This document shows, piece by piece, positions 37,683 through 52,990 of a DNA stretch of 64,000 nucleotides. Under the pieces are notes generated by a model, which saw nothing but the letters and a program-made list of their open reading frames with translations, did not search any database and was not told the origin of the DNA. Source of the stretch: an uncultured bacterium. GTDB taxonomy: Bacteria > Patescibacteriota > Minisyncoccia > Phycocordibacterales > CAIZLB01. The DNA lies in contig CAINHC010000001.1 of assembly GCA_903848795.1 (NCBI GenBank), positions 14,915 to 78,914 on the forward strand, read 5' to 3'. The translations under genes and the position numbers were made by a program. Each line of letters begins with the position of its first letter. The stretch's first letter is position 1.

Positions 37683-37946
37683 CTAGTACTTTCCACACTT
37701 TTTATCATTCTTAATTAATTCTAGTTTTTGCTCTTTTTTCCACCTTTTAATTTCCGCCTCCCTACCTCGAGCTTCATTTAGGGTCTGGAAGGTTTCCGAA
37801 TATTTCAAAAATACTGGGCGTCTAATTTTTGTGTAATGCGCGCCGGATTTTAGGTTATTATGTTGATTGAGTCTTTTTTCAAGGTCATTAGTGCAACCGA
37901 CATACAGGGTCTTATCAGCACATTCGAGGATGTAGACGGTGAACAT
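37683..37946 (-). CDS. GIY-YIG nuclease (YhbQ/UPF0213-like)
   Basis: 'VYILECADKTLYVGCTNDLEKRLNQHN...GAHYT...EAEIK'. Confidence 0.92.
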   Translation of the reverse strand: MFTVYILECADKTLYVGCTNDLEKRLNQHNNLKSGAHYTKIRRPVFLKYSETFQTLNEARGREAEIKRWKKEQKLELIKNDKKCGKY

Positions 37947-45504: not shown

Positions 45505-46326
45505 CTATAATATCGCGTCTGTCGCTTTTTTGAAATCAGCTGGAAGTTCTACCTCGAATTCGCTCATTTCTCCGCTCACCCCACCTTCGTCACCCACTAA
45601 TGCGTTGGATGGTAAAATTAGCTTTAATTTGCGAGCATGAAGCGCTAGGCGATCAAAACCCAAAGCCTTAGGGTGATTCTCGGCATACAAACTATCGCCC
45701 ACCACAGGGTGATTTATGGCCTTAAAATGAACTCTAATCTGATGCGTTCTTCCAGTTAGTGGATGAACCTCAACAAAAGTAAACATCAAGGGTATTTTGG
45801 AATTACCTTTGCCAACCATTATTGCACCTCTCTTCATCACAGGATCTCCATCAAATCTTTTTAGCACTTTATATTCTGTCACCGCGGGACGAAGCTCACC
45901 TCGAGAAAAACGTTGGGCACTCCACTTTCTAAAGTCCCCCTTACTTCTTCCGATGTGTCTGTCTATTACACCCTCATCCTCTTTAACAAAACCCCACACA
46001 AAAGTATTGTATGTTTTTTTGATTATATGATCCTGAAATTGTTTTTTAAGTATTTCAAAAGCCTCTTGATTTCTAGCCACAACCATAACGCCCGAGGTTT
46101 CTTTATCTAGCCTATGAACAACACCTGGTCTTCTTAAAATTGTAGGTTCTTTGTTTGGACCCCTGCCGATTGTCATAGGCTCACCCACATCCTTAGTCTC
46201 TGGAAATTCTTCTTCAATAAAATCACATAAGGTTTTTTCCTTTGTTTTACCATCGCCGTGAACCATAATGCCGGCGGGTTTATTTATGATCAAAACGTCC
46301 TTATCTTGGTATATTATTGATAACAT
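45505..46326 (-). CDS. RluA/RluD-family pseudouridine synthase
   Basis: 'INKPAG', 'VHRLDKETSG', 'TGRTHQIRVH'; start probably 46326 (ORF open to 46386). Confidence 0.93.
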   Translation of the reverse strand: MLSIIYQDKDVLIINKPAGIMVHGDGKTKEKTLCDFIEEEFPETKDVGEPMTIGRGPNKEPTILRRPGVVHRLDKETSGVMVVARNQEAFEILKKQFQDHIIKKTYNTFVWGFVKEDEGVIDRHIGRSKGDFRKWSAQRFSRGELRPAVTEYKVLKRFDGDPVMKRGAIMVGKGNSKIPLMFTFVEVHPLTGRTHQIRVHFKAINHPVVGDSLYAENHPKALGFDRLALHARKLKLILPSNALVGDEGGVSGEMSEFEVELPADFKKATDAIL

Positions 46327-46390
46327 TACCGTTATCATACTCGATATTGATATTATTTCAATAATAGTATATATTATGGGAACCAAATGA

Positions 46391-46463
46391 GGGCGATTAG
46401 CTCAGTTGGTAGAGCAACTCATTTACACTGAGAAGGTCAGGGGTTCGAGTCCCTTATCGCCCA
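46391..46463 (+). tRNA. tRNA-Val(TAC)
   Basis: Acceptor GGGCGAT/ATCGCCC, anticodon loop TTTACAC, T-loop TTCGAGT. Confidence 0.95.
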
Positions 46464-46673
46464 CAAAACAAAAATAACAGGAATTTATTCCTGTTATTTT
46501 TCGTTTGTGTTGGGGCGATAGGAGGTGCCTTGAGTCACCTCCGCAAGGGACGAGAAAAGCTTTGCTATATTTTCGAGAATCTGAAAGATTCGAGAAAATT
46601 GCAAAGGTGTACTGGGGCTGCGATTCAGCAGAATCGCCTACTGGGTAAGCCCCGAGTCCCTTATCGCCCACAA
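46464..46673 (+). repeat. tRNA-3'-linked structured element (Val copy) ending in a 21-bp duplication of the tRNA 3' end
   Basis: 46446-46466 = 46653-46673 (CGAGTCCCTTATCGCCCACAA); internal antisense GGGCGATA and AAGGGAC; nested hairpins. Confidence 0.8.
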
Positions 46674-46680
46674 TTCACTC

Positions 46681-46794
46681 AAAACTCCGCTTCTATTGAA
46701 TGCACACCAATTTTCTGCTGAAAATTCGATTTCCGTCGACAGGAAATCGCCCGCTCGTTGCAACTCGCAAGGCATTCAATAGAAGCGGAGTTTT
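46681..46794. repeat. Palindromic element: 23-bp perfect arms around a conserved core
   Basis: Arms 46681-46703 and 46772-46794; core shared with 44224-44319. Confidence 0.75.
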
Positions 46795-46949
46795 TCGTTC
46801 ATGGGTATTTTGTAAAAAAATTCGATGATTGGAATTATTTTATCACCCTGCTTTCGCTTTTGAAGCCGAACACTTATCTTATTTTATAAGTAAAAAACTT
46901 CCAAAAAAATCCTCCGCCACAAAAGATAATATCCTTATCCAATGAACGA

Positions 46950-47118
46950 ATTTGTGCTCTCGGTAGGAATCTTCCCCTACGGGGACGGTACAGGTTTCGT
47001 ATTGTGCTCGCTATGCTTCGCACAATATACTCAACCTTTTCGATTCCTACACGCAAGCCGATCAATCGGCTTGCTCTCGAGCCCAAAATTAAAACGCCTT
47101 TCGGCGTTTTAATATTTG
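46950..47118 (-). repeat. tRNA-3'-linked structured element (Arg-TCT copy) ending in a 22-bp duplication of the tRNA 3' end
   Basis: 46950-46971 = 47114-47135; core nearly identical to the element after tRNA-Arg(GCG). Confidence 0.85.
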
Positions 47119-47190
47119 TGCTCTCGGTAGGAATCGAACCTACATTAACGGCTTAGAAGTCCGCAGTTCTATCCATTGAACTACAAGAGC
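47119..47190 (-). tRNA. tRNA-Arg(TCT)
   Basis: Acceptor GCTCTTG/CGAGAGC, anticodon loop CTTCTAA, T-arm GTAGG-TTCGATT-CCTAC. Confidence 0.92.
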
Positions 47191-47213
47191 ATGCATGTAC
47201 AATAGCATATTTT

Positions 47214-47621
47214 TTAAATTTTACCAGCCCCAGACACCACCCCCGCTCCAGCAGGGCTGGTCGCTGTATTGTTGGTGGTTGATGCATTCGTTGTAGTTGC
47301 CACCACGCCAACCTTAGCACCTGCCGTGGTCGCAGTAGCGACCGTCATCCCCGCCCAAGATGCCTCCTTGCCTTGATACTTCTCAATCACGCTTTTAATC
47401 TCCGCTTCCTTGTCCTTAACTGGAACAAAATCTGTCGCCTCGCCAGAATCAGACATTAAAGATGTCTGAACAGAAAAATAGAAAAAATAACTCCAAATAA
47501 AAACTCCAAGAATAATAGAAAAAGCTACAACCATAATTCTTTGCCAATCTTGGACTGGTCGACTGCCGAATATATACATATTCCTTAATTTATTTCCAAA
47601 TTGTCCTAGTTCTATATTCAT
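47214..47621 (-). CDS. Small membrane protein at end of PilMNO-like operon
   Basis: One TM helix after 'DW', Thr/Ala-rich tail; operon context. Confidence 0.65.
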   Translation of the reverse strand: MNIELGQFGNKLRNMYIFGSRPVQDWQRIMVVAFSIILGVFIWSYFFYFSVQTSLMSDSGEATDFVPVKDKEAEIKSVIEKYQGKEASWAGMTVATATTAGAKVGVVATTTNASTTNNTATSPAGAGVVSGAGKI

Positions 47622-47622
47622 A

Positions 47623-48168
47623 TTATTTTTCTTTGACTACTAATATTTGTAAATCTAACTGCCCTGAACTTGTTGCAACCTGCAACCCACCAGTCTTTGT
47701 AGTCGAATAATTTTTTATCTTTATATTAAAAGGCAGAGACTCGACCTTATCCACAAAATTTGAGACCGACCCCCCCGTACCAGAAACACTTTCCTTTATA
47801 CTTAAATATTCCTTATCTACTTTAGATAAATTATCATCTTGAACAATCTCAATGGCGTTTGTACTGAATGTTAAGCTATTTAATACCGCCAAATCTTCTA
47901 TCGTCTGAACAAATTTTATTGAACCCTCATTATCGACCGGGACAATATATTTCATCAAATCTGCATTTCTCGCGTCTGCATTCTGAGCAACCCTCTTGAT
48001 AGAATTCAAACTGTCCTCCTCCTTTTTTAGATCATTTGATTTCTTATAAATACTGACCAAGTCTCCTCCCATATTTCCAACATAAACCACGGCAAAAAAA
48101 TATCCAGAGATAGATACTAGCGCAAGTATTATTGATATTATTAATGTGTAGTAAGTTTTTTTAATCAT
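47623..48168 (-). CDS. PilO-like protein
   Basis: N-terminal TM, coiled coil, 'FVDKVESLPF'; follows PilM/PilN-like genes. Confidence 0.65.
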   Translation of the reverse strand: MIKKTYYTLIISIILALVSISGYFFAVVYVGNMGGDLVSIYKKSNDLKKEEDSLNSIKRVAQNADARNADLMKYIVPVDNEGSIKFVQTIEDLAVLNSLTFSTNAIEIVQDDNLSKVDKEYLSIKESVSGTGGSVSNFVDKVESLPFNIKIKNYSTTKTGGLQVATSSGQLDLQILVVKEK

Positions 48169-48170
48169 TT

Positions 48171-48722
48171 CTATTTTTTAATAGGCTTAATTAAATTAAA
48201 ATTAAAGGAAAAGCTCAAGTCCTTCTTTCTGGTAAAACTGGTGATTGGTATATTGATACTTGTGAATTCTGGGTTTGAGTTAATCTTTTTTTGTAATTCA
48301 ATTAACTTATCTCTATCTGGAGCCACACCACTTATACTAATCGAAGCGCTATTATCATCAATTAATCCATAAGTGTATCTATCTATATAAGCTCCATCTG
48401 GTAAACTGTTCAAAATTTTATTATATGCTTCCTTGGGAGATAAAATGTTTATTGAATTTTTAAGTGCTTCCAAACTTGAATTTACTAACTTAATTTTATC
48501 TTGAAAATTTTGGTCTCTTAGTGACTGCAAAGACTTCTCTTTGTTTTGATTTTCACTTTTAACTATATTTACCCTACCAGCCGCATATAAATAACTAGGC
48601 AAAAGACACGCCATTCCAACCATTGAGATAAAAAAGACAATCCAACAAACCACTATTACAAGCCTCATTTTGTACTCTTTTATGACCTTTTTCTTTTGTA
48701 ATTCTGGTAGTAGGTGTAACAT
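48171..48722 (-). CDS. PilN-like protein
   Basis: 'MLHLLP' start, TM, 'ISISGVAPDRDKL'. Confidence 0.75.
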   Translation of the reverse strand: MLHLLPELQKKKVIKEYKMRLVIVVCWIVFFISMVGMACLLPSYLYAAGRVNIVKSENQNKEKSLQSLRDQNFQDKIKLVNSSLEALKNSINILSPKEAYNKILNSLPDGAYIDRYTYGLIDDNSASISISGVAPDRDKLIELQKKINSNPEFTSINIPITSFTRKKDLSFSFNFNLIKPIKK

Positions 48723-48726
48723 CTTT

Positions 48727-49848
48727 TTATTGATCTTTTAATAAAGCAAGTCCAAAAGCAGTACCATATCCCAAGGATTCTCGCATGGAAATTTCTGGTA
48801 TCTCATTCTCAAACGATAGAATATTTGTCCAAACATTCGCAACCTCAACTGGAGTCTTTAGTGATATCGCAAGGAAGTCTCTAAACCCGATAACACCAGC
48901 CTCCTTACCAGCTATTAGTATCTTCTTAACTCCAGCAGAGGAATTACCCTTAGTTGGTAATCCTGAAACTATATCAATATTACTTTTAAAATTATTTATA
49001 CTATTCCAGTAAATAAACACCTTTCTGATTTCCTCAACCAACAAATTTGCTGTCGACATTAATGCATTAGAAACGACCTCATTACTAGCATCCCGTGAAA
49101 AACCTTTTTCAAACTTTATTGAAGTAGCAGAATCTTCATCAAGAGATGCTCCTTTCATAATTGCATTGGTAAAATCCTCCGACCCAATAGAAATTGTTGA
49201 TGTAAACTGAACCGCCTCATCATTAACAACAGAAAGAACTGTACTCTTATGGCTAATGTTAACAATGAAATAATTTTCTCTGTCACCTTTTTTTATAATA
49301 GCTCGGGACAATGCCTGGTTTTCAATCAAGAAGGAAATTGGAAACATTCCGCAAGATTCGAATAGCTCAATATATTCATTTATAACAACGGTGGGCACTA
49401 CAGACACAGCAAGAAATTGCATGCCTGTACTCTCATTTTTCTTTATTCTATGATAATCAAAAATTGCATCATCTATCGATATCGGAACATTCTCTTCGAG
49501 ATGCATCTCAATTCTGTTTCTGATTTCTTCCTTTGTTCCATCAACCACCTCAATAGTAAACAAATAGGCCTTTTCTTCTGGAATCGATATTTCTACAAAC
49601 TTTAATTTATATTTCTTCTGAATCTTTTTTAGAATATCTATAAGGTTTTTATTAGATAACAGAGATTCGTTTGGTAACATTGGTGAATCCAGCTTCTCCT
49701 CGGCGCAACACCTTAATTTTAGACCCTTAGCAGTTCTAATAATTTCAGCCATATGAACAGCAGAAGAGCTGATATCAAAACCAGCGTGGGACATTTCTAG
49801 ATAGTGAGATGTTGGAAAATATTTATTTAGTGTATCTAGGTACGACAT
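48727..49848 (-). CDS. pilM: Type IV pilus assembly protein PilM
   Basis: 'GFDISSSAV', actin-like fold, C-terminal 'YGTAFGLAL'. Confidence 0.85.
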   Translation of the reverse strand: MSYLDTLNKYFPTSHYLEMSHAGFDISSSAVHMAEIIRTAKGLKLRCCAEEKLDSPMLPNESLLSNKNLIDILKKIQKKYKLKFVEISIPEEKAYLFTIEVVDGTKEEIRNRIEMHLEENVPISIDDAIFDYHRIKKNESTGMQFLAVSVVPTVVINEYIELFESCGMFPISFLIENQALSRAIIKKGDRENYFIVNISHKSTVLSVVNDEAVQFTSTISIGSEDFTNAIMKGASLDEDSATSIKFEKGFSRDASNEVVSNALMSTANLLVEEIRKVFIYWNSINNFKSNIDIVSGLPTKGNSSAGVKKILIAGKEAGVIGFRDFLAISLKTPVEVANVWTNILSFENEIPEISMRESLGYGTAFGLALLKDQ

Positions 49849-49927
49849 GTACTACTATTCTATCATAACAAAAAGATTTTGTTATAATTATTTTGCAACT
49901 TTTTTAAGCTTTTATTTTTAGTTATGA

Positions 49928-50809
49928 CTATTTCAACTTTGTACCATTTGGCAAACTCTTGCTTGGATTAAGTAGGGCAATATTTTTACCGTCACCTCCA
50001 GCCAATATCATAGCTTGGCTTTCTTGTCCCATCATCATTCTAGGGGCCAAGTTTGTAACAAAGGGAAACTGCTTTCCAACCAGATCTACAGCATCAACAT
50101 GTCTTGCTATTCCAGAAAGAACCTGTCGTGGCCTTTCTTCACCAAAATCAACTGAAAGTTTTAGTAATTTATCAGAACCTTCTATGTTTTCAACTACTAA
50201 AATTTGGCCCATTTTTATCTCTACCTTTAGAAAATCGTCAATCGATATATAATCTGATGTTTTACTGACCCCAGCCTCCGCCTTTGGATTTTCCAATGTT
50301 TCCGTTTGGGTATTATTATCAATATTGTTATCCTTTATTTCTGTATCTTGTGATTGTGTATTCATATTTTTAAATTTTATTCTATCCAAATAACTTTGTA
50401 AAATGATCGCCGCTGCCGATGCGTCTACATTCTTGTTTTCACCCTGGAACTTAGTAGCCTGAACCGTGGAGTATAATTCTGGTTCATAAACAACATTAAA
50501 CCCAGCCTCTTCCAGTTTTGACCCAAAAAATCTAGCATCTACCATGATTGTATTATCAACCCCCTTGAGATCTACTGAGTGTCCAATTATAGCGGTTTGA
50601 GCCTGCCGGTCTTTTAGAATATCAACTACCTCCTGTACAGCCTGCTTTATTCTTTCCTCTCTCTTGTCTATGTCGTGACCAAAACCAGCGACAACAGTCA
50701 ATGGGAAGGCCAACAGTCCAAGCACGTCTCCGACCGCTACGCCAATCCTCTTTGATCCAAAATCTAGGCCAATTATTCTTTTATTTATTTCGGAAACGTC
50801 TTTATTCAT
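49928..50809 (-). CDS. ruvX: RuvX/YqgF nuclease fused to a Trbp111/MetRS-C tRNA-binding OB domain
   Basis: 'IIGLDFGSKRIGVA...DASAAAIILQSYLD' then 'ISIDDFLKVEIKMG...SDKLLKL.VDFG...RQVLSGI...NLAPR...SQAMILA'. Confidence 0.88.
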   Translation of the reverse strand: MNKDVSEINKRIIGLDFGSKRIGVAVGDVLGLLAFPLTVVAGFGHDIDKREERIKQAVQEVVDILKDRQAQTAIIGHSVDLKGVDNTIMVDARFFGSKLEEAGFNVVYEPELYSTVQATKFQGENKNVDASAAAIILQSYLDRIKFKNMNTQSQDTEIKDNNIDNNTQTETLENPKAEAGVSKTSDYISIDDFLKVEIKMGQILVVENIEGSDKLLKLSVDFGEERPRQVLSGIARHVDAVDLVGKQFPFVTNLAPRMMMGQESQAMILAGGDGKNIALLNPSKSLPNGTKLK

Positions 50810-50953
50810 ATATTATTGGTAGTCTATCAAAAAGAATGATTTGTGGCTAATTATGTCGATAAAATACTGACAAAAAGCCGTGAATGTTGACCGAGCTACC
50901 ATCTTGCCCTCGTCTATTGTTTTTTTCTTTATTTTTGCTAATATGACAAGCAC

Positions 50954-51040
50954 GGAGGAGTGGCAGAGTGGTCTAATGCACTTGTCTTGAAAACAAGAGT
51001 CTCTTTACGGGGACCGTGAGTTCGAATCTCACCTCCTCCG
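50954..51040 (+). tRNA. tRNA-Ser(TGA)
   Basis: Acceptor GGAGGAG/CTCCTCC, CTTGT-CTTGAAA-ACAAG, long variable arm. Confidence 0.95.
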
Positions 51041-51105
51041 CCGATAATTAAAAAAGCGCCCCCCCCAGGGTCGTTTTTTTATTTACAAGCCATGTGTTAT
51101 TTTAT

Positions 51106-51810
51106 CTACCAAGGCATTCTCTCCTTTCCAAACCAAAAGCCTCCTGTCTCCTTATCTGAAACAATAACACCATAAATACCCTCCGCCGCTTCTTCTGCTG
51201 TTATATCAGCCTCAGACCCACCAAGATCGGTCTTAACCCACCCAGGATGAACTGACGAAACTGTTATATTAGACTTCTTTAATCTCTGCGCCAGAGTACA
51301 TGTATACATATTTAGTCCAGCTTTTGATATTTTATAGCTTGGATAATGATATGGATAATGACTTTCAGCCCTACCTGCTTTTTCTAGCGATCCCGCGGAT
51401 GAAGAAATATTTATAATTTGTCCGCCAGAGTTTATCTGAGAAATTAACCTTTCTGTAAAGTCGATTGGGCCTATTAGATTAACTTCTAATGTTTTTCTAA
51501 GTTTCTCGACAATTACACTAGTATCATCTTCATCAAAAAGCGCGCCTGCGTTGTTTATTAAAATATCAATTTTCGTACCAGCGAAAATTATTTCATTCAC
51601 GCATTGCTCTATACTTTCTGGAGAAGATAAATCAAGCTTAAATATTTTAGTTTTAGGCACCTCATCTCTAGAGCCGACGTCGTTGTCTGTAGCCACCTTA
51701 TCTACGCCAATATAAACCGTCCCTAAAACATTAAAACCTTCTTTTATAAATTTAAATTGGAGCGCCTCCCCTATTCCCCTCGAAACTCCTGTAATTAGCA
51801 CTGTTTTCAT
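51106..51810 (-). CDS. SDR-family oxidoreductase
   Basis: 'ITGVSRGIG', 'INNAG', 'YKISK', 'HPGWVKTD'. Confidence 0.92.
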   Translation of the reverse strand: MKTVLITGVSRGIGEALQFKFIKEGFNVLGTVYIGVDKVATDNDVGSRDEVPKTKIFKLDLSSPESIEQCVNEIIFAGTKIDILINNAGALFDEDDTSVIVEKLRKTLEVNLIGPIDFTERLISQINSGGQIINISSSAGSLEKAGRAESHYPYHYPSYKISKAGLNMYTCTLAQRLKKSNITVSSVHPGWVKTDLGGSEADITAEEAAEGIYGVIVSDKETGGFWFGKERMPW

Positions 51811-51930
51811 AATGTAAGCATAGCATGAAACTTTTTAACTTTTAAATTTTAAATTTGAAGAGATATTTATCAAAATACACAATAGGTGATATAGCAATAT
51901 CATCTACTGAGTGATATAATAATTTTAATC

Positions 51931-52413
51931 ATGAACGATGAACCACAAGTCAAATCTATAACCTGGGAAACTTACGAGCACGAACATCGTGAAAAAAGTA
52001 AGGATTGGTATTGGTCTCTTGGAATTTTAATTGTTACAGCTTCTGTTTTATCAATTATTTTTGGTAATTATCTTTTCGGAATATTACTTATTGTCATTGG
52101 CGTATCACTTGCCGTTGTTGGCTCTAAACATCCAAAGTTAACTATTTTTGAATTAAACAAAATGGGTATTAGAATTGGTAATAAATTATTCCCATACGCA
52201 ACTCTTGAAGCTTTTTGGGTTCAAGACAATGAGGAGCACGATAGACCATCTCAGCTTTTAATCAAATCAAGAAAGACAATGGTGCCCTTACTTATAATTC
52301 CAATCGACGGAATTGAGACTCACGAGATCCGGGATTTCTTATTGTATAACCTACTCGAAAAGGAAATGGAGGAGTCACTTTCCCAGATAATACTAGAAAA
52401 TTTGGGTTTTTAG
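51931..52413 (+). CDS. Hypothetical two-TM membrane protein
   Basis: 'WETYEHEHREKSKDWYW' followed by 2 TM and a soluble C-terminal domain. Confidence 0.75.
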   Translation: MNDEPQVKSITWETYEHEHREKSKDWYWSLGILIVTASVLSIIFGNYLFGILLIVIGVSLAVVGSKHPKLTIFELNKMGIRIGNKLFPYATLEAFWVQDNEEHDRPSQLLIKSRKTMVPLLIIPIDGIETHEIRDFLLYNLLEKEMEESLSQIILENLGF

Positions 52414-52440
52414 CAAATCTGTGGTACTTTTTAGGGTATC

Positions 52441-52512
52441 GCTCTCGTCGTTCAATGGATAGGACATGACTTTGCGGAAGTTAAAATGTAGGTTCGATTC
52501 CTACCGGGAGCA
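52441..52512 (+). tRNA. tRNA-Arg(GCG)
   Basis: Acceptor GCTCTCG/CGGGAGC, TGACT-TTGCGGA-AGTTA, T-arm GTAGG-TTCGATT-CCTAC. Confidence 0.9.
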
Positions 52513-52684
52513 CATGAAAATAAAAAACACCCTAAGGTGTTTTTTATTTTTCGGGCGAGCGAAGAAGCTAATTTATTAGCTTCTGTGTAGAAATCGAAAA
52601 GGTTGAGTATATTGTGCGATGCGTAGCGAGCACAATACGAAACCTATACCGTCCCTGTAAGGGAAGATTCCTACCGGGGGCACA
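52513..52684 (+). repeat. tRNA-3'-linked structured element (Arg-GCG copy) ending in an 18/19-bp duplication of the tRNA 3' end
   Basis: 52496-52514 vs 52666-52684; core nearly identical to 46950-47118. Confidence 0.85.
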
Positions 52685-52726
52685 ATATAGGAGTGTGATT
52701 TGAGATTCTATGATAAAATACTGAGT

Positions 52727-52990
52727 ATGAATAATTTATCACTCATAATCCCCGTAATATACCTATTGATATATTGGATAGGGGCATTTTTTATCGTATA
52801 TCACCTACTAAAATATGGTATTACATACTGGCCAAAAAGAATGGCTGGATTGTTTTTGGCTGGATCTATTGTACTCAGCATTCTCAGCTTCATGCTCTTC
52901 ACTCAAATAAATTTTCAACAACTTTTTGGTGGCAAACTACTGCAAAGCAATAATAGTTTCATGGATAATTTTAAACAAAAAACACAATAA
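52727..52990 (+). CDS. Small two-TM hypothetical protein
   Basis: 'FFIVYHLLKYG'; ATG 52727 behind TGATAAAAT. Confidence 0.65.
   Translation: MNNLSLIIPVIYLLIYWIGAFFIVYHLLKYGITYWPKRMAGLFLAGSIVLSILSFMLFTQINFQQLFGGKLLQSNNSFMDNFKQKTQ

Follow-up and report, generated by a model that had tools for sequence, protein, structure and literature searches.

We analyzed a 64,000-nucleotide (nt) stretch of a patescibacterial contig (NCBI GenBank assembly GCA_903848795.1, contig CAINHC010000001.1, positions 14,915 to 78,914), hereafter the window, and found that three of its transfer RNA (tRNA) genes, those for tRNA-Val(TAC), tRNA-Arg(TCT) and tRNA-Arg(GCG), are each followed by a small, gene-less element built of hairpins. 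Each element carries an inverted (antisense) and a direct copy of the end of its own host tRNA gene, set around a conserved core. The family to which these copies belong is real, widespread and apparently undescribed. The core is mobile, and close relatives differ in whether a given tRNA gene carries a copy. We put the probability at roughly 0.55 that it travels as single-stranded DNA in folded form and enters hairpins at G^NNN^RA (carets, the likely cuts), with the copies of the tRNA end taken from the target at landing.

An original prediction, based on the letters of the window, had recognized three tRNA-linked elements with a common order of parts. Part-by-part reading confirmed this, with the tRNA genes at their predicted positions. 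After each gene come a terminator-like hairpin, hairpin 1, a segment antisense to the T-arm, GAAAAG, a central stem, TRTAC, hairpin 3 and the direct copy of the tRNA end. The parts are located as follows:

46391..46464, +, host gene tRNA-Val(TAC), intact
46470..46501, +, Val copy: terminator-like hairpin, the apex of a long inverted repeat formed between tRNA end and antisense
46513..46520, +, Val copy: antisense to the acceptor 3' strand
46520..46544, +, Val copy: hairpin 1, with conserved foot (AG ... CG), interrupting the antisense at positions 66|65
46545..46553, +, Val copy: antisense to the T-stem 3' strand and positions 59-60, then GA (a subfamily variant opposite 57-58)
46554..46653, +, Val copy: conserved core, made of GAAAAG, central stem, GTRTAC (46607-46612) and hairpin 3 with GTA loop
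46620-46644, +, Val copy: 25-nt insert from another repeat family, within hairpin 3
46654..46671, +, Val copy: direct copy of tRNA-Val positions 57-74
47118..47190, -, host gene tRNA-Arg(TCT), intact
47088..47113, -, Arg(TCT) copy: terminator-like hairpin
47078-47084, -, Arg(TCT) copy: acceptor antisense (part of 47039..47084)
47051-47077, -, Arg(TCT) copy: hairpin 1
47039-47050, -, Arg(TCT) copy: perfect 12-nt antisense to positions 54-65
46972..47041, -, Arg(TCT) copy: conserved core, Arg-type subfamily
46954..46971, -, Arg(TCT) copy: direct copy of tRNA-Arg(TCT) positions 57-74
52441..52513, +, host gene tRNA-Arg(GCG), intact
52517..52550, +, Arg(GCG) copy: terminator-like hairpin
52551..52598, +, Arg(GCG) copy: decayed acceptor antisense, hairpin 1 (52562-52586) and T-arm antisense with one mismatch (52587-52598)
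52596..52665, +, Arg(GCG) copy: conserved core, nearly identical to that of the Arg(TCT) copy
52666..52683, +, Arg(GCG) copy: direct copy of tRNA-Arg(GCG) positions 57-74, one mismatch

The direct copy, predicted to span 19-22 bp from the T-loop, is indeed present; its true length is 18 nt from position 57, and chance flanking matches give the 19-22. Acceptor antisense, thought to be an extra of the Val copy, occurs there but proved to be general. A central stem belongs to the scaffold as predicted, but the word TATATT assigned to it is not family-wide. Folding of the window copies gave z values of -3.3 to -8.1 against dinucleotide shuffles (both strands, RNA and DNA parameters). In the fold, pairing between antisense and direct copy forms the helix that closes a junction, from which hairpin 1, the central stem and hairpin 3 branch; the shape resembles the top half of a tRNA. 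The GAA of GAAAAG is the complement of host T54-T55-C56. Both Arg tRNAs carry one identical T-arm and the window therefore offers just two independent targets, so that it could not by itself prove that the copies track their hosts. The source genome (1.02 Mb in 52 contigs, with relatives labelled Patescibacteria) holds, among 39 tRNA genes, a fourth full copy at tRNA-Leu(TAG) (contig C36) and a truncated copy at tRNA-Val(GAC) (contig C28). A profile built from the five copies gave no further strong match in the genome.

We then searched other genomes. A scan of a sample of 121 genomes of the order with a pattern for the right end of the element matched in 55 of them (0-11 copies per genome), and the reversed pattern, used as control, matched once. 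Species genomes were also scanned with a two-ended pattern; 11 of 64 parts gave 121 loci, and about 700 are estimated in all. Hairpin 3 was present in 89 of these loci (75 labelled Patescibacteria, 11 without group label and 3 with other labels); the 32 without it, 30 of them named from other groups, were discarded as chance hits. In metagenomes, a right-end-only scan took in 120 loci of an estimated 2600 stretches, and hairpin 3 was paired in 117 of 126 right-end matches. Viral contigs gave 13 right-end matches, one of them real, and none with the two-ended pattern. The resulting right-end set comprised 278 distinct right ends. The tRNA-linked set comprised 153 copies at 40 anticodons and 20 isotypes, in which neighbouring tRNAs led to a double count of at least one element (L147) and related copies are not independent. 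Hosts also include transfer-messenger RNA (tmRNA) genes, at three loci. Twenty loci without an adjacent tRNA yielded just two distant tRNAs on an Rfam search. Several copies with no adjacent tRNA (L102, L112, L132, L101, L148, L064, L110, L133) are preceded by a damaged tRNA end that retains a T-loop-like word and the final 5-7 nt, which looks as though an island entered between gene and element.

The empty orthologous loci that the original prediction had proposed to look for exist among same-genus genomes. The Val site carries the element in 2 of the 6 same-genus loci and is empty in the other 4, and the Arg(TCT) site shows the same 2 and 4. Of the six genomes, two had neither element, one had the Val copy only, one the Arg copy only, one had neither and other DNA between the genes, and the source genome had both. 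Contigs of four sequencing runs, possibly from the source sample, contained no joint removing an element; this was not counted as evidence.

The antisense was found to track its own tRNA. Over positions 59-65 its identity to the adjacent tRNA was 0.882 in the 153 copies, with a shuffled maximum of 0.586. In a first set of 72 copies the values were 0.857 and at most 0.617, and there the acceptor antisense and the direct copy were likewise above every shuffle. Position 59 matches the host in 152 of 153 copies. Position 57 also tracks it, with A in 28 of the 29 copies at A57 hosts. The predicted arrangement of a fixed scaffold on which tRNA-matching parts change with the host thus held in the larger set. 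At non-Watson-Crick positions of the host acceptor stem, the complement of the 3' strand was found in the element in 32 cases and the base of the 5' strand in one; at those of the T-stem the counts were 23 for the 3'-strand complement, 6 for the alternative and 15 for other bases (7, 3 and 8 in the smaller first set). The antisense is therefore a mirror copy, and its origin as a decayed second tRNA gene was rejected. In 38 of 55 copies that allow the test, the antisense continues from one side of hairpin 1 to the other without a gap, the break falling mostly at 66|65, the acceptor/T-stem junction of the host tRNA. A test of whether hairpin 1 travels together with the core gave a weak association (rho 0.05), and this reading was set aside.

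At the other end, the direct copy begins at host position 57-58 in 149 of 153 copies and is preceded by TTC in 50, and the right junction of the element lies at R57. The acceptor part of the direct copy has been lost in 58 of the 153. Cores that are 95-100% identical were found at different isotypes with both target copies rewritten; for Tyr and Glu, core identity is 0.968 and 6 of 15 target bases are shared. Rewriting of the matching parts for each target is well supported. Since point mutation cannot exchange both target copies while the core stays, the tRNA-matching segments were likely templated from the target.

Among the 278 right ends, 17 were free of antisense, with hairpin 1 joined straight to the core behind a TGAG-type left end. 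In four loci the tRNA gene is split by such a copy and has an intact duplicate beside it, which reveals the empty site. We rejected a tRNA intron as explanation: the split copies have no 3' ends and an intact gene adjoins them. The empty sites were GG^TTC^GA (Lys and Gly, in the T-loop), GG^CGT^AA (Glu) and AG^CGC^GA (Ala), the last two near the variable loop. At all four loci the three bases between G and RA had been replaced, giving G^NNN^RA, and in three of them the left end carries one extra T. The right junction, hairpin 3 followed by RA, is common to the antisense-free and the tRNA-trailing forms. Other antisense-free copies lie in SRM-type repeats (L316, L305) and other hairpin repeats and inside another copy of the element; a further one interrupts a 23S ribosomal RNA (rRNA) gene (L184). 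Some rRNA insertions in these bacteria may be due to cores of this kind. Because these copies have no antisense, the core is mobile by itself and the antisense is not required for movement. The predicted non-autonomous, tRNA-targeting mini-element is thus non-autonomous and has host-specific segments, and its targets extend to tmRNA genes, other hairpins and 23S rDNA. Those segments had been called target-specifying; they are host-specific, but the core moves without the antisense and they look target-derived.

We compared the ends of the copies with genomic and with mature tRNA ends. At genes without an encoded CCA, TGG was found in the antisense in 0 of 25 cases, and position 75 of the antisense was genomic in 16 and of CCA type in 3 of 24. 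Among 80 exact direct copies, CCA forms the end of only 14, and in 3 of 38 copies the duplication extends 12-20 nt into the trailer. These ends indicate that the template is DNA or a precursor, not mature tRNA. Reverse transcription of mature tRNA was rejected on the CCA tests as the source of the copies.

Hairpin 3 bears on the state in which the core moves. Its loop is GTA in 103 of 104 copies from searches not requiring GTA, on 39 different stems. Of 520 pairs in these stems, 510 are Watson-Crick, 5 are G-T and 3 are A-C, compared with 18 G-U in 360 pairs and no other mismatch in the host T-stems. Pairs between antisense and host include 7 G-T, 6 A-C and 16 other mismatches, again with no wobble excess; our statements on covariation rest on these pair counts. 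According to the available part of one report, d(GNA) triloops are stable in DNA, dependent on the closing pair (PMC3201870). The invariant GTA triloop and the lack of a wobble excess favour single-stranded DNA. The unit might instead act as RNA, forming a tRNA-shaped trailer with acceptor-like and T-like helices and with hairpin 1 in the place of the D and anticodon arms, which would be cut out with the tRNA and serve as a mimic, decoy or processing switch. The fold like a tRNA top half and the break of the antisense at 66|65 would suit such a role, and Escherichia coli has tRNA-linked repeats (TLR), bearing an end copy of 18-19 bp, that can undergo transcription and processing, as the accessible portion of their description states (PMC8144298). 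However, the terminator-like hairpin parts gene from element, neither hairpin 3 nor the antisense-host pairs show a G-U excess, the acceptor part of the direct copy is gone in more than a third of copies, and patchy presence and split tRNA genes fit a parasite. We regard a role as RNA as improbable. The tRNA-mimic RNA that the original prediction had offered as its alternative is disfavoured by the pair counts, by the DNA-type triloop and by antisense that reads into the genomic trailer rather than CCA.

For movement as single-stranded DNA we propose the following route. The moving unit would be hairpin 1 plus the core of about 70 nt, without genes, and an enzyme acting in trans would insert it into hairpins, the tRNA T-loop among them, at G^NNN^RA. 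A plain insertion would kill the tRNA gene, and survivors would be those that keep a whole gene, either as a downstream duplicate, which we saw, or with a rebuilt end upstream, as in the window. In the latter case synthesis from the cut gene may restore its end and continue over its terminator. At the terminator palindrome the new strand would turn back on itself and copy the tRNA end in reverse, reaching hairpin 1 and passing across it, and the original gene end would remain behind hairpin 3 as the direct copy. Copying from the target would in this way keep an essential gene whole. A later, pairing-directed correction would be needed as well, because one fold-back leaves the host bases between scaffold parts unexplained. 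In its widest form, the proposal would make the family a new class of protein-less mobile DNA, its address renewed at each target, with a fixed single-stranded scaffold whose hairpins are flanked by host-copied guide segments, which enters any tRNA or tmRNA gene without killing it and is driven by a DNA-guided insertion enzyme of Patescibacteria or their phages. This wider claim we put forward tentatively.

Several observations weigh against movement as single-stranded DNA with copies taken at landing. The antisense-free copies almost all belong to one junction class, with none among 130 copies of the GAAAAG class of the window, and this class may travel with its antisense. Of the 80 exact direct copies, 10 end in CCA where the host gene has none. 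The trailers after gene and after copy showed no similarity above shuffles over 38 copies (0.576, with a shuffled maximum of 0.586). The host-tracking sequence holds embedded scaffold pieces that one fold-back does not explain, namely hairpin 1 and, in 20 of the 153 direct copies (for example L129, L133, L219 and L223), a conserved 14-nt insert separating positions 59 and 60, which occurs at different hosts and is like the central-stem loop of some cores. The closing pair of hairpin 3 is mostly T-A and not the more stable C-G, and folding energies do not tell RNA from DNA. In addition, the search for an enzyme found none. Among 120 neighbouring open reading frames (ORFs) searched with Pfam there was no integrase or transposase, and one reverse transcriptase (RT), one GIY-YIG and one LAGLIDADG match. 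By hand counts over genomes that include dependent kin, with a single query each for GIY-YIG and RT, element-positive and other genomes did not differ clearly in Y1 HUH genes (30/55 versus 42/66, p 0.35), small GIY-YIG genes (40/55 versus 39/66, p 0.13) or RT genes of the diversity-generating retroelement (DGR) type (25/55 versus 22/66, p 0.19). No autonomous copy was found among the 278 right ends.

As the main alternative, the antisense could be a working DNA guide. A single-stranded circle would carry the tRNA end and fold to a duplex, an HUH transposase or Xer-type recombinase would exchange one strand at TTC^R, and the guide would then be corrected to the new host. An intact site, an inverted copy and a direct copy about 70 nt apart are what a folded-attP single-strand exchange would produce, to judge from the part of the source at hand (PMC3089051), and the antisense crosses the junction, its GAA pairing with TTC. 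In IS608, guides sit 5' of the hairpin foot, one of them being AAAG, and extended pairing redirects insertion, as given in the available text (PMC5934647). The window's class has no antisense-free form seen, as noted above. Against this, a tRNA end brought from a donor would break a different tRNA upon retargeting, and antisense-free copies insert regardless, replacing 3 nt. The folded junction is three-way, not a plain duplex. No Y1 gene is linked to the element, and the sole tyrosine recombinase of the genome is a lone Xer-like gene amid housekeeping genes. We consider a working guide unlikely.

Small target deletions are typical of target-primed reverse transcription, as in R2 elements. An RNA copy might be reverse-transcribed at a target nick, with a second cut 3 nt away leading to the 3-nt replacement and template jumps giving the antisense. 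RT genes occur in 47 of the 121 genomes of the order, and one locus (L117) has an RT gene 278 nt upstream. However, RT genes and the element do not go together across genomes, the query used found no RT gene in five of the richest genomes, neither copy derives from mature CCA-ended tRNA, and the triloop is of DNA type; retrotransposition thus has a poor chance of being right. The flanks of 189 loci (460 kb) contained no Y1 or integrase match, one RT and three GIY-YIG matches, none of the latter bounded by the core. The original prediction was right that the element has no integrase or cargo, and of the recombinase, HUH or RT gene that it had suggested might co-occur, no integrase or HUH gene was found adjacent, and RT genes do not follow the element's distribution. 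A host protein, a phage-borne one or a member of a subfamily that these broad searches hide may serve as the enzyme. The genome has an IS200-like gene with hairpin ends (C6 46675-47094), a RAYT-like gene (C52 147-779) and several RT genes (C22, C2, C32, C48, C49), none of which adjoins the element, and the ends of the IS200-like gene are unlike the element core. Small GIY-YIG genes are common in these genomes, often at tRNA genes. In the window, an 87-amino-acid (aa) GIY-YIG ORF (37683-37946, -) begins 2 nt after tRNA-His. In L322 (1000-1620), a 78-aa GIY-YIG ORF lies between a split tRNA-Leu 5' fragment and the intact tRNA-Leu, which the element follows.

We compared the element with known systems. 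At Rfam gathering thresholds only tRNAs were reached in the window, and an E-value search of 46300-52800 gave nothing near threshold over the elements; no existing Rfam family matches. No description of the family or its kin was found in the literature searched, most subscription journals and supplements lying outside its scope. The family behaves like a small non-autonomous hairpin element, yet fits no named family tested. E. coli TLR, compared by description, likewise follow tRNA or rRNA genes and, as the element does, finish with 18-19 bp that repeat the upstream gene's 3' end. The available part of their description mentions no antisense, no core shared across isotypes and no mobility (PMC8144298), whereas the element core also inserts without duplication. 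Of the 89 real loci, 86 are labelled Patescibacteria or unlabelled. IS200/IS605 and non-autonomous derivatives resemble the element in their hairpin ends, the short word AAAG at the 5' hairpin foot of IS608 and extendable DNA-DNA pairing for targeting, so far as the consulted portion describes them (PMC5934647). The element differs in having no TnpA link, a G^NNN^RA target with three bases replaced, and matching parts that vary per host while the core stays. Neither the cognate Y1 HUH gene of IS200/IS605 and REP/RAYT systems (none in the flanks) nor their clean insertion 3' of a fixed 4-5 nt target was found. CTX phage and other Xer-exploiting elements have inverted and direct target copies that fold to a duplex in single-stranded DNA, and their integration leaves one working and two dead sites, on the evidence of the part available (PMC3089051); the element differs in targeting any tRNA or tmRNA end and not dif, in its three-way junction and in having no phage genes. 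Where IMEX have a dif-like site with arms bound by Xer, the targets observed here are tRNA and tmRNA ends and other hairpins. The Ssn GIY-YIG nucleases with NTS/SRM hairpin repeats likewise recognise a hairpin motif in single-stranded DNA, on one strand, and the accessible part of that paper makes no mention of tRNA, candidate phyla radiation (CPR) or Patescibacteria (PMC11893778). SRM repeats are targets of the element, not its ends. A miniature inverted-repeat transposable element (MITE) was rejected: the antisense-free form has unlike ends and replaced target bases, and the tRNA-linked inverted repeats are host sequence.

The layout of intact gene, terminator, insert and displaced 3' fragment is that of tyrosine-integrase islands at the T-loop and their gene-less derivatives. 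The copies might thus be shrunken island remains, or plain tRNA-end duplications of the TLR type, with palindromes later perfected by replication slippage. Island-type attachment remnants do lie upstream of many copies. But the 7-nt T-loop overlap is not duplicated, neither neighbouring ORFs nor flanks held an integrase, and a conserved, covarying core at 20 isotypes and at non-tRNA targets is no decay product. To our knowledge, such islands carry no antisense copy. This origin is largely refuted and we give it very little weight.

Other repeats accompany the element in the genome. The insert in the Val hairpin 3 belongs to a small hairpin repeat family with 14 core matches in the genome, the other 13 elsewhere. 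Directly after the Val direct copy lies a distinct long-hairpin element (46673-46801, +), with a sister copy behind tRNA-Ala(TGC) on contig C8. Behind tRNA genes on C28 (after tRNA-Ser(CGA), L003) and in L321 and L338 lies a sister family that has antisense and GAAAG but another scaffold; in some loci its antisense is unbroken. Among the tRNA genes, unusual anticodons include two tRNA-Ser(ACT), tRNA-Arg(GCG) and tRNA-Ile(TAT). Both tRNA-Ser(ACT) genes precede tandem hairpin arrays that end in tRNA-like words.

Near-identical scaffolds bear wholly different target-matching sequence at all 20 kinds of tRNA and at tmRNA genes, and within the literature searched we found no described element that rewrites its target-matching parts upon landing. 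If the antisense guides insertion, the enzyme that is sought would be a DNA-programmed inserter of natural origin, suited to safe-harbour sites. Should the antisense instead be a repair scar, it would illustrate how hits in essential genes are survived by streamlined genomes whose tRNA genes are single-copy. In both cases the family is present in nearly half of the sampled genomes of the order, explains their broken and duplicated tRNA genes and gives exact putative cut positions, G^NNN^RA.

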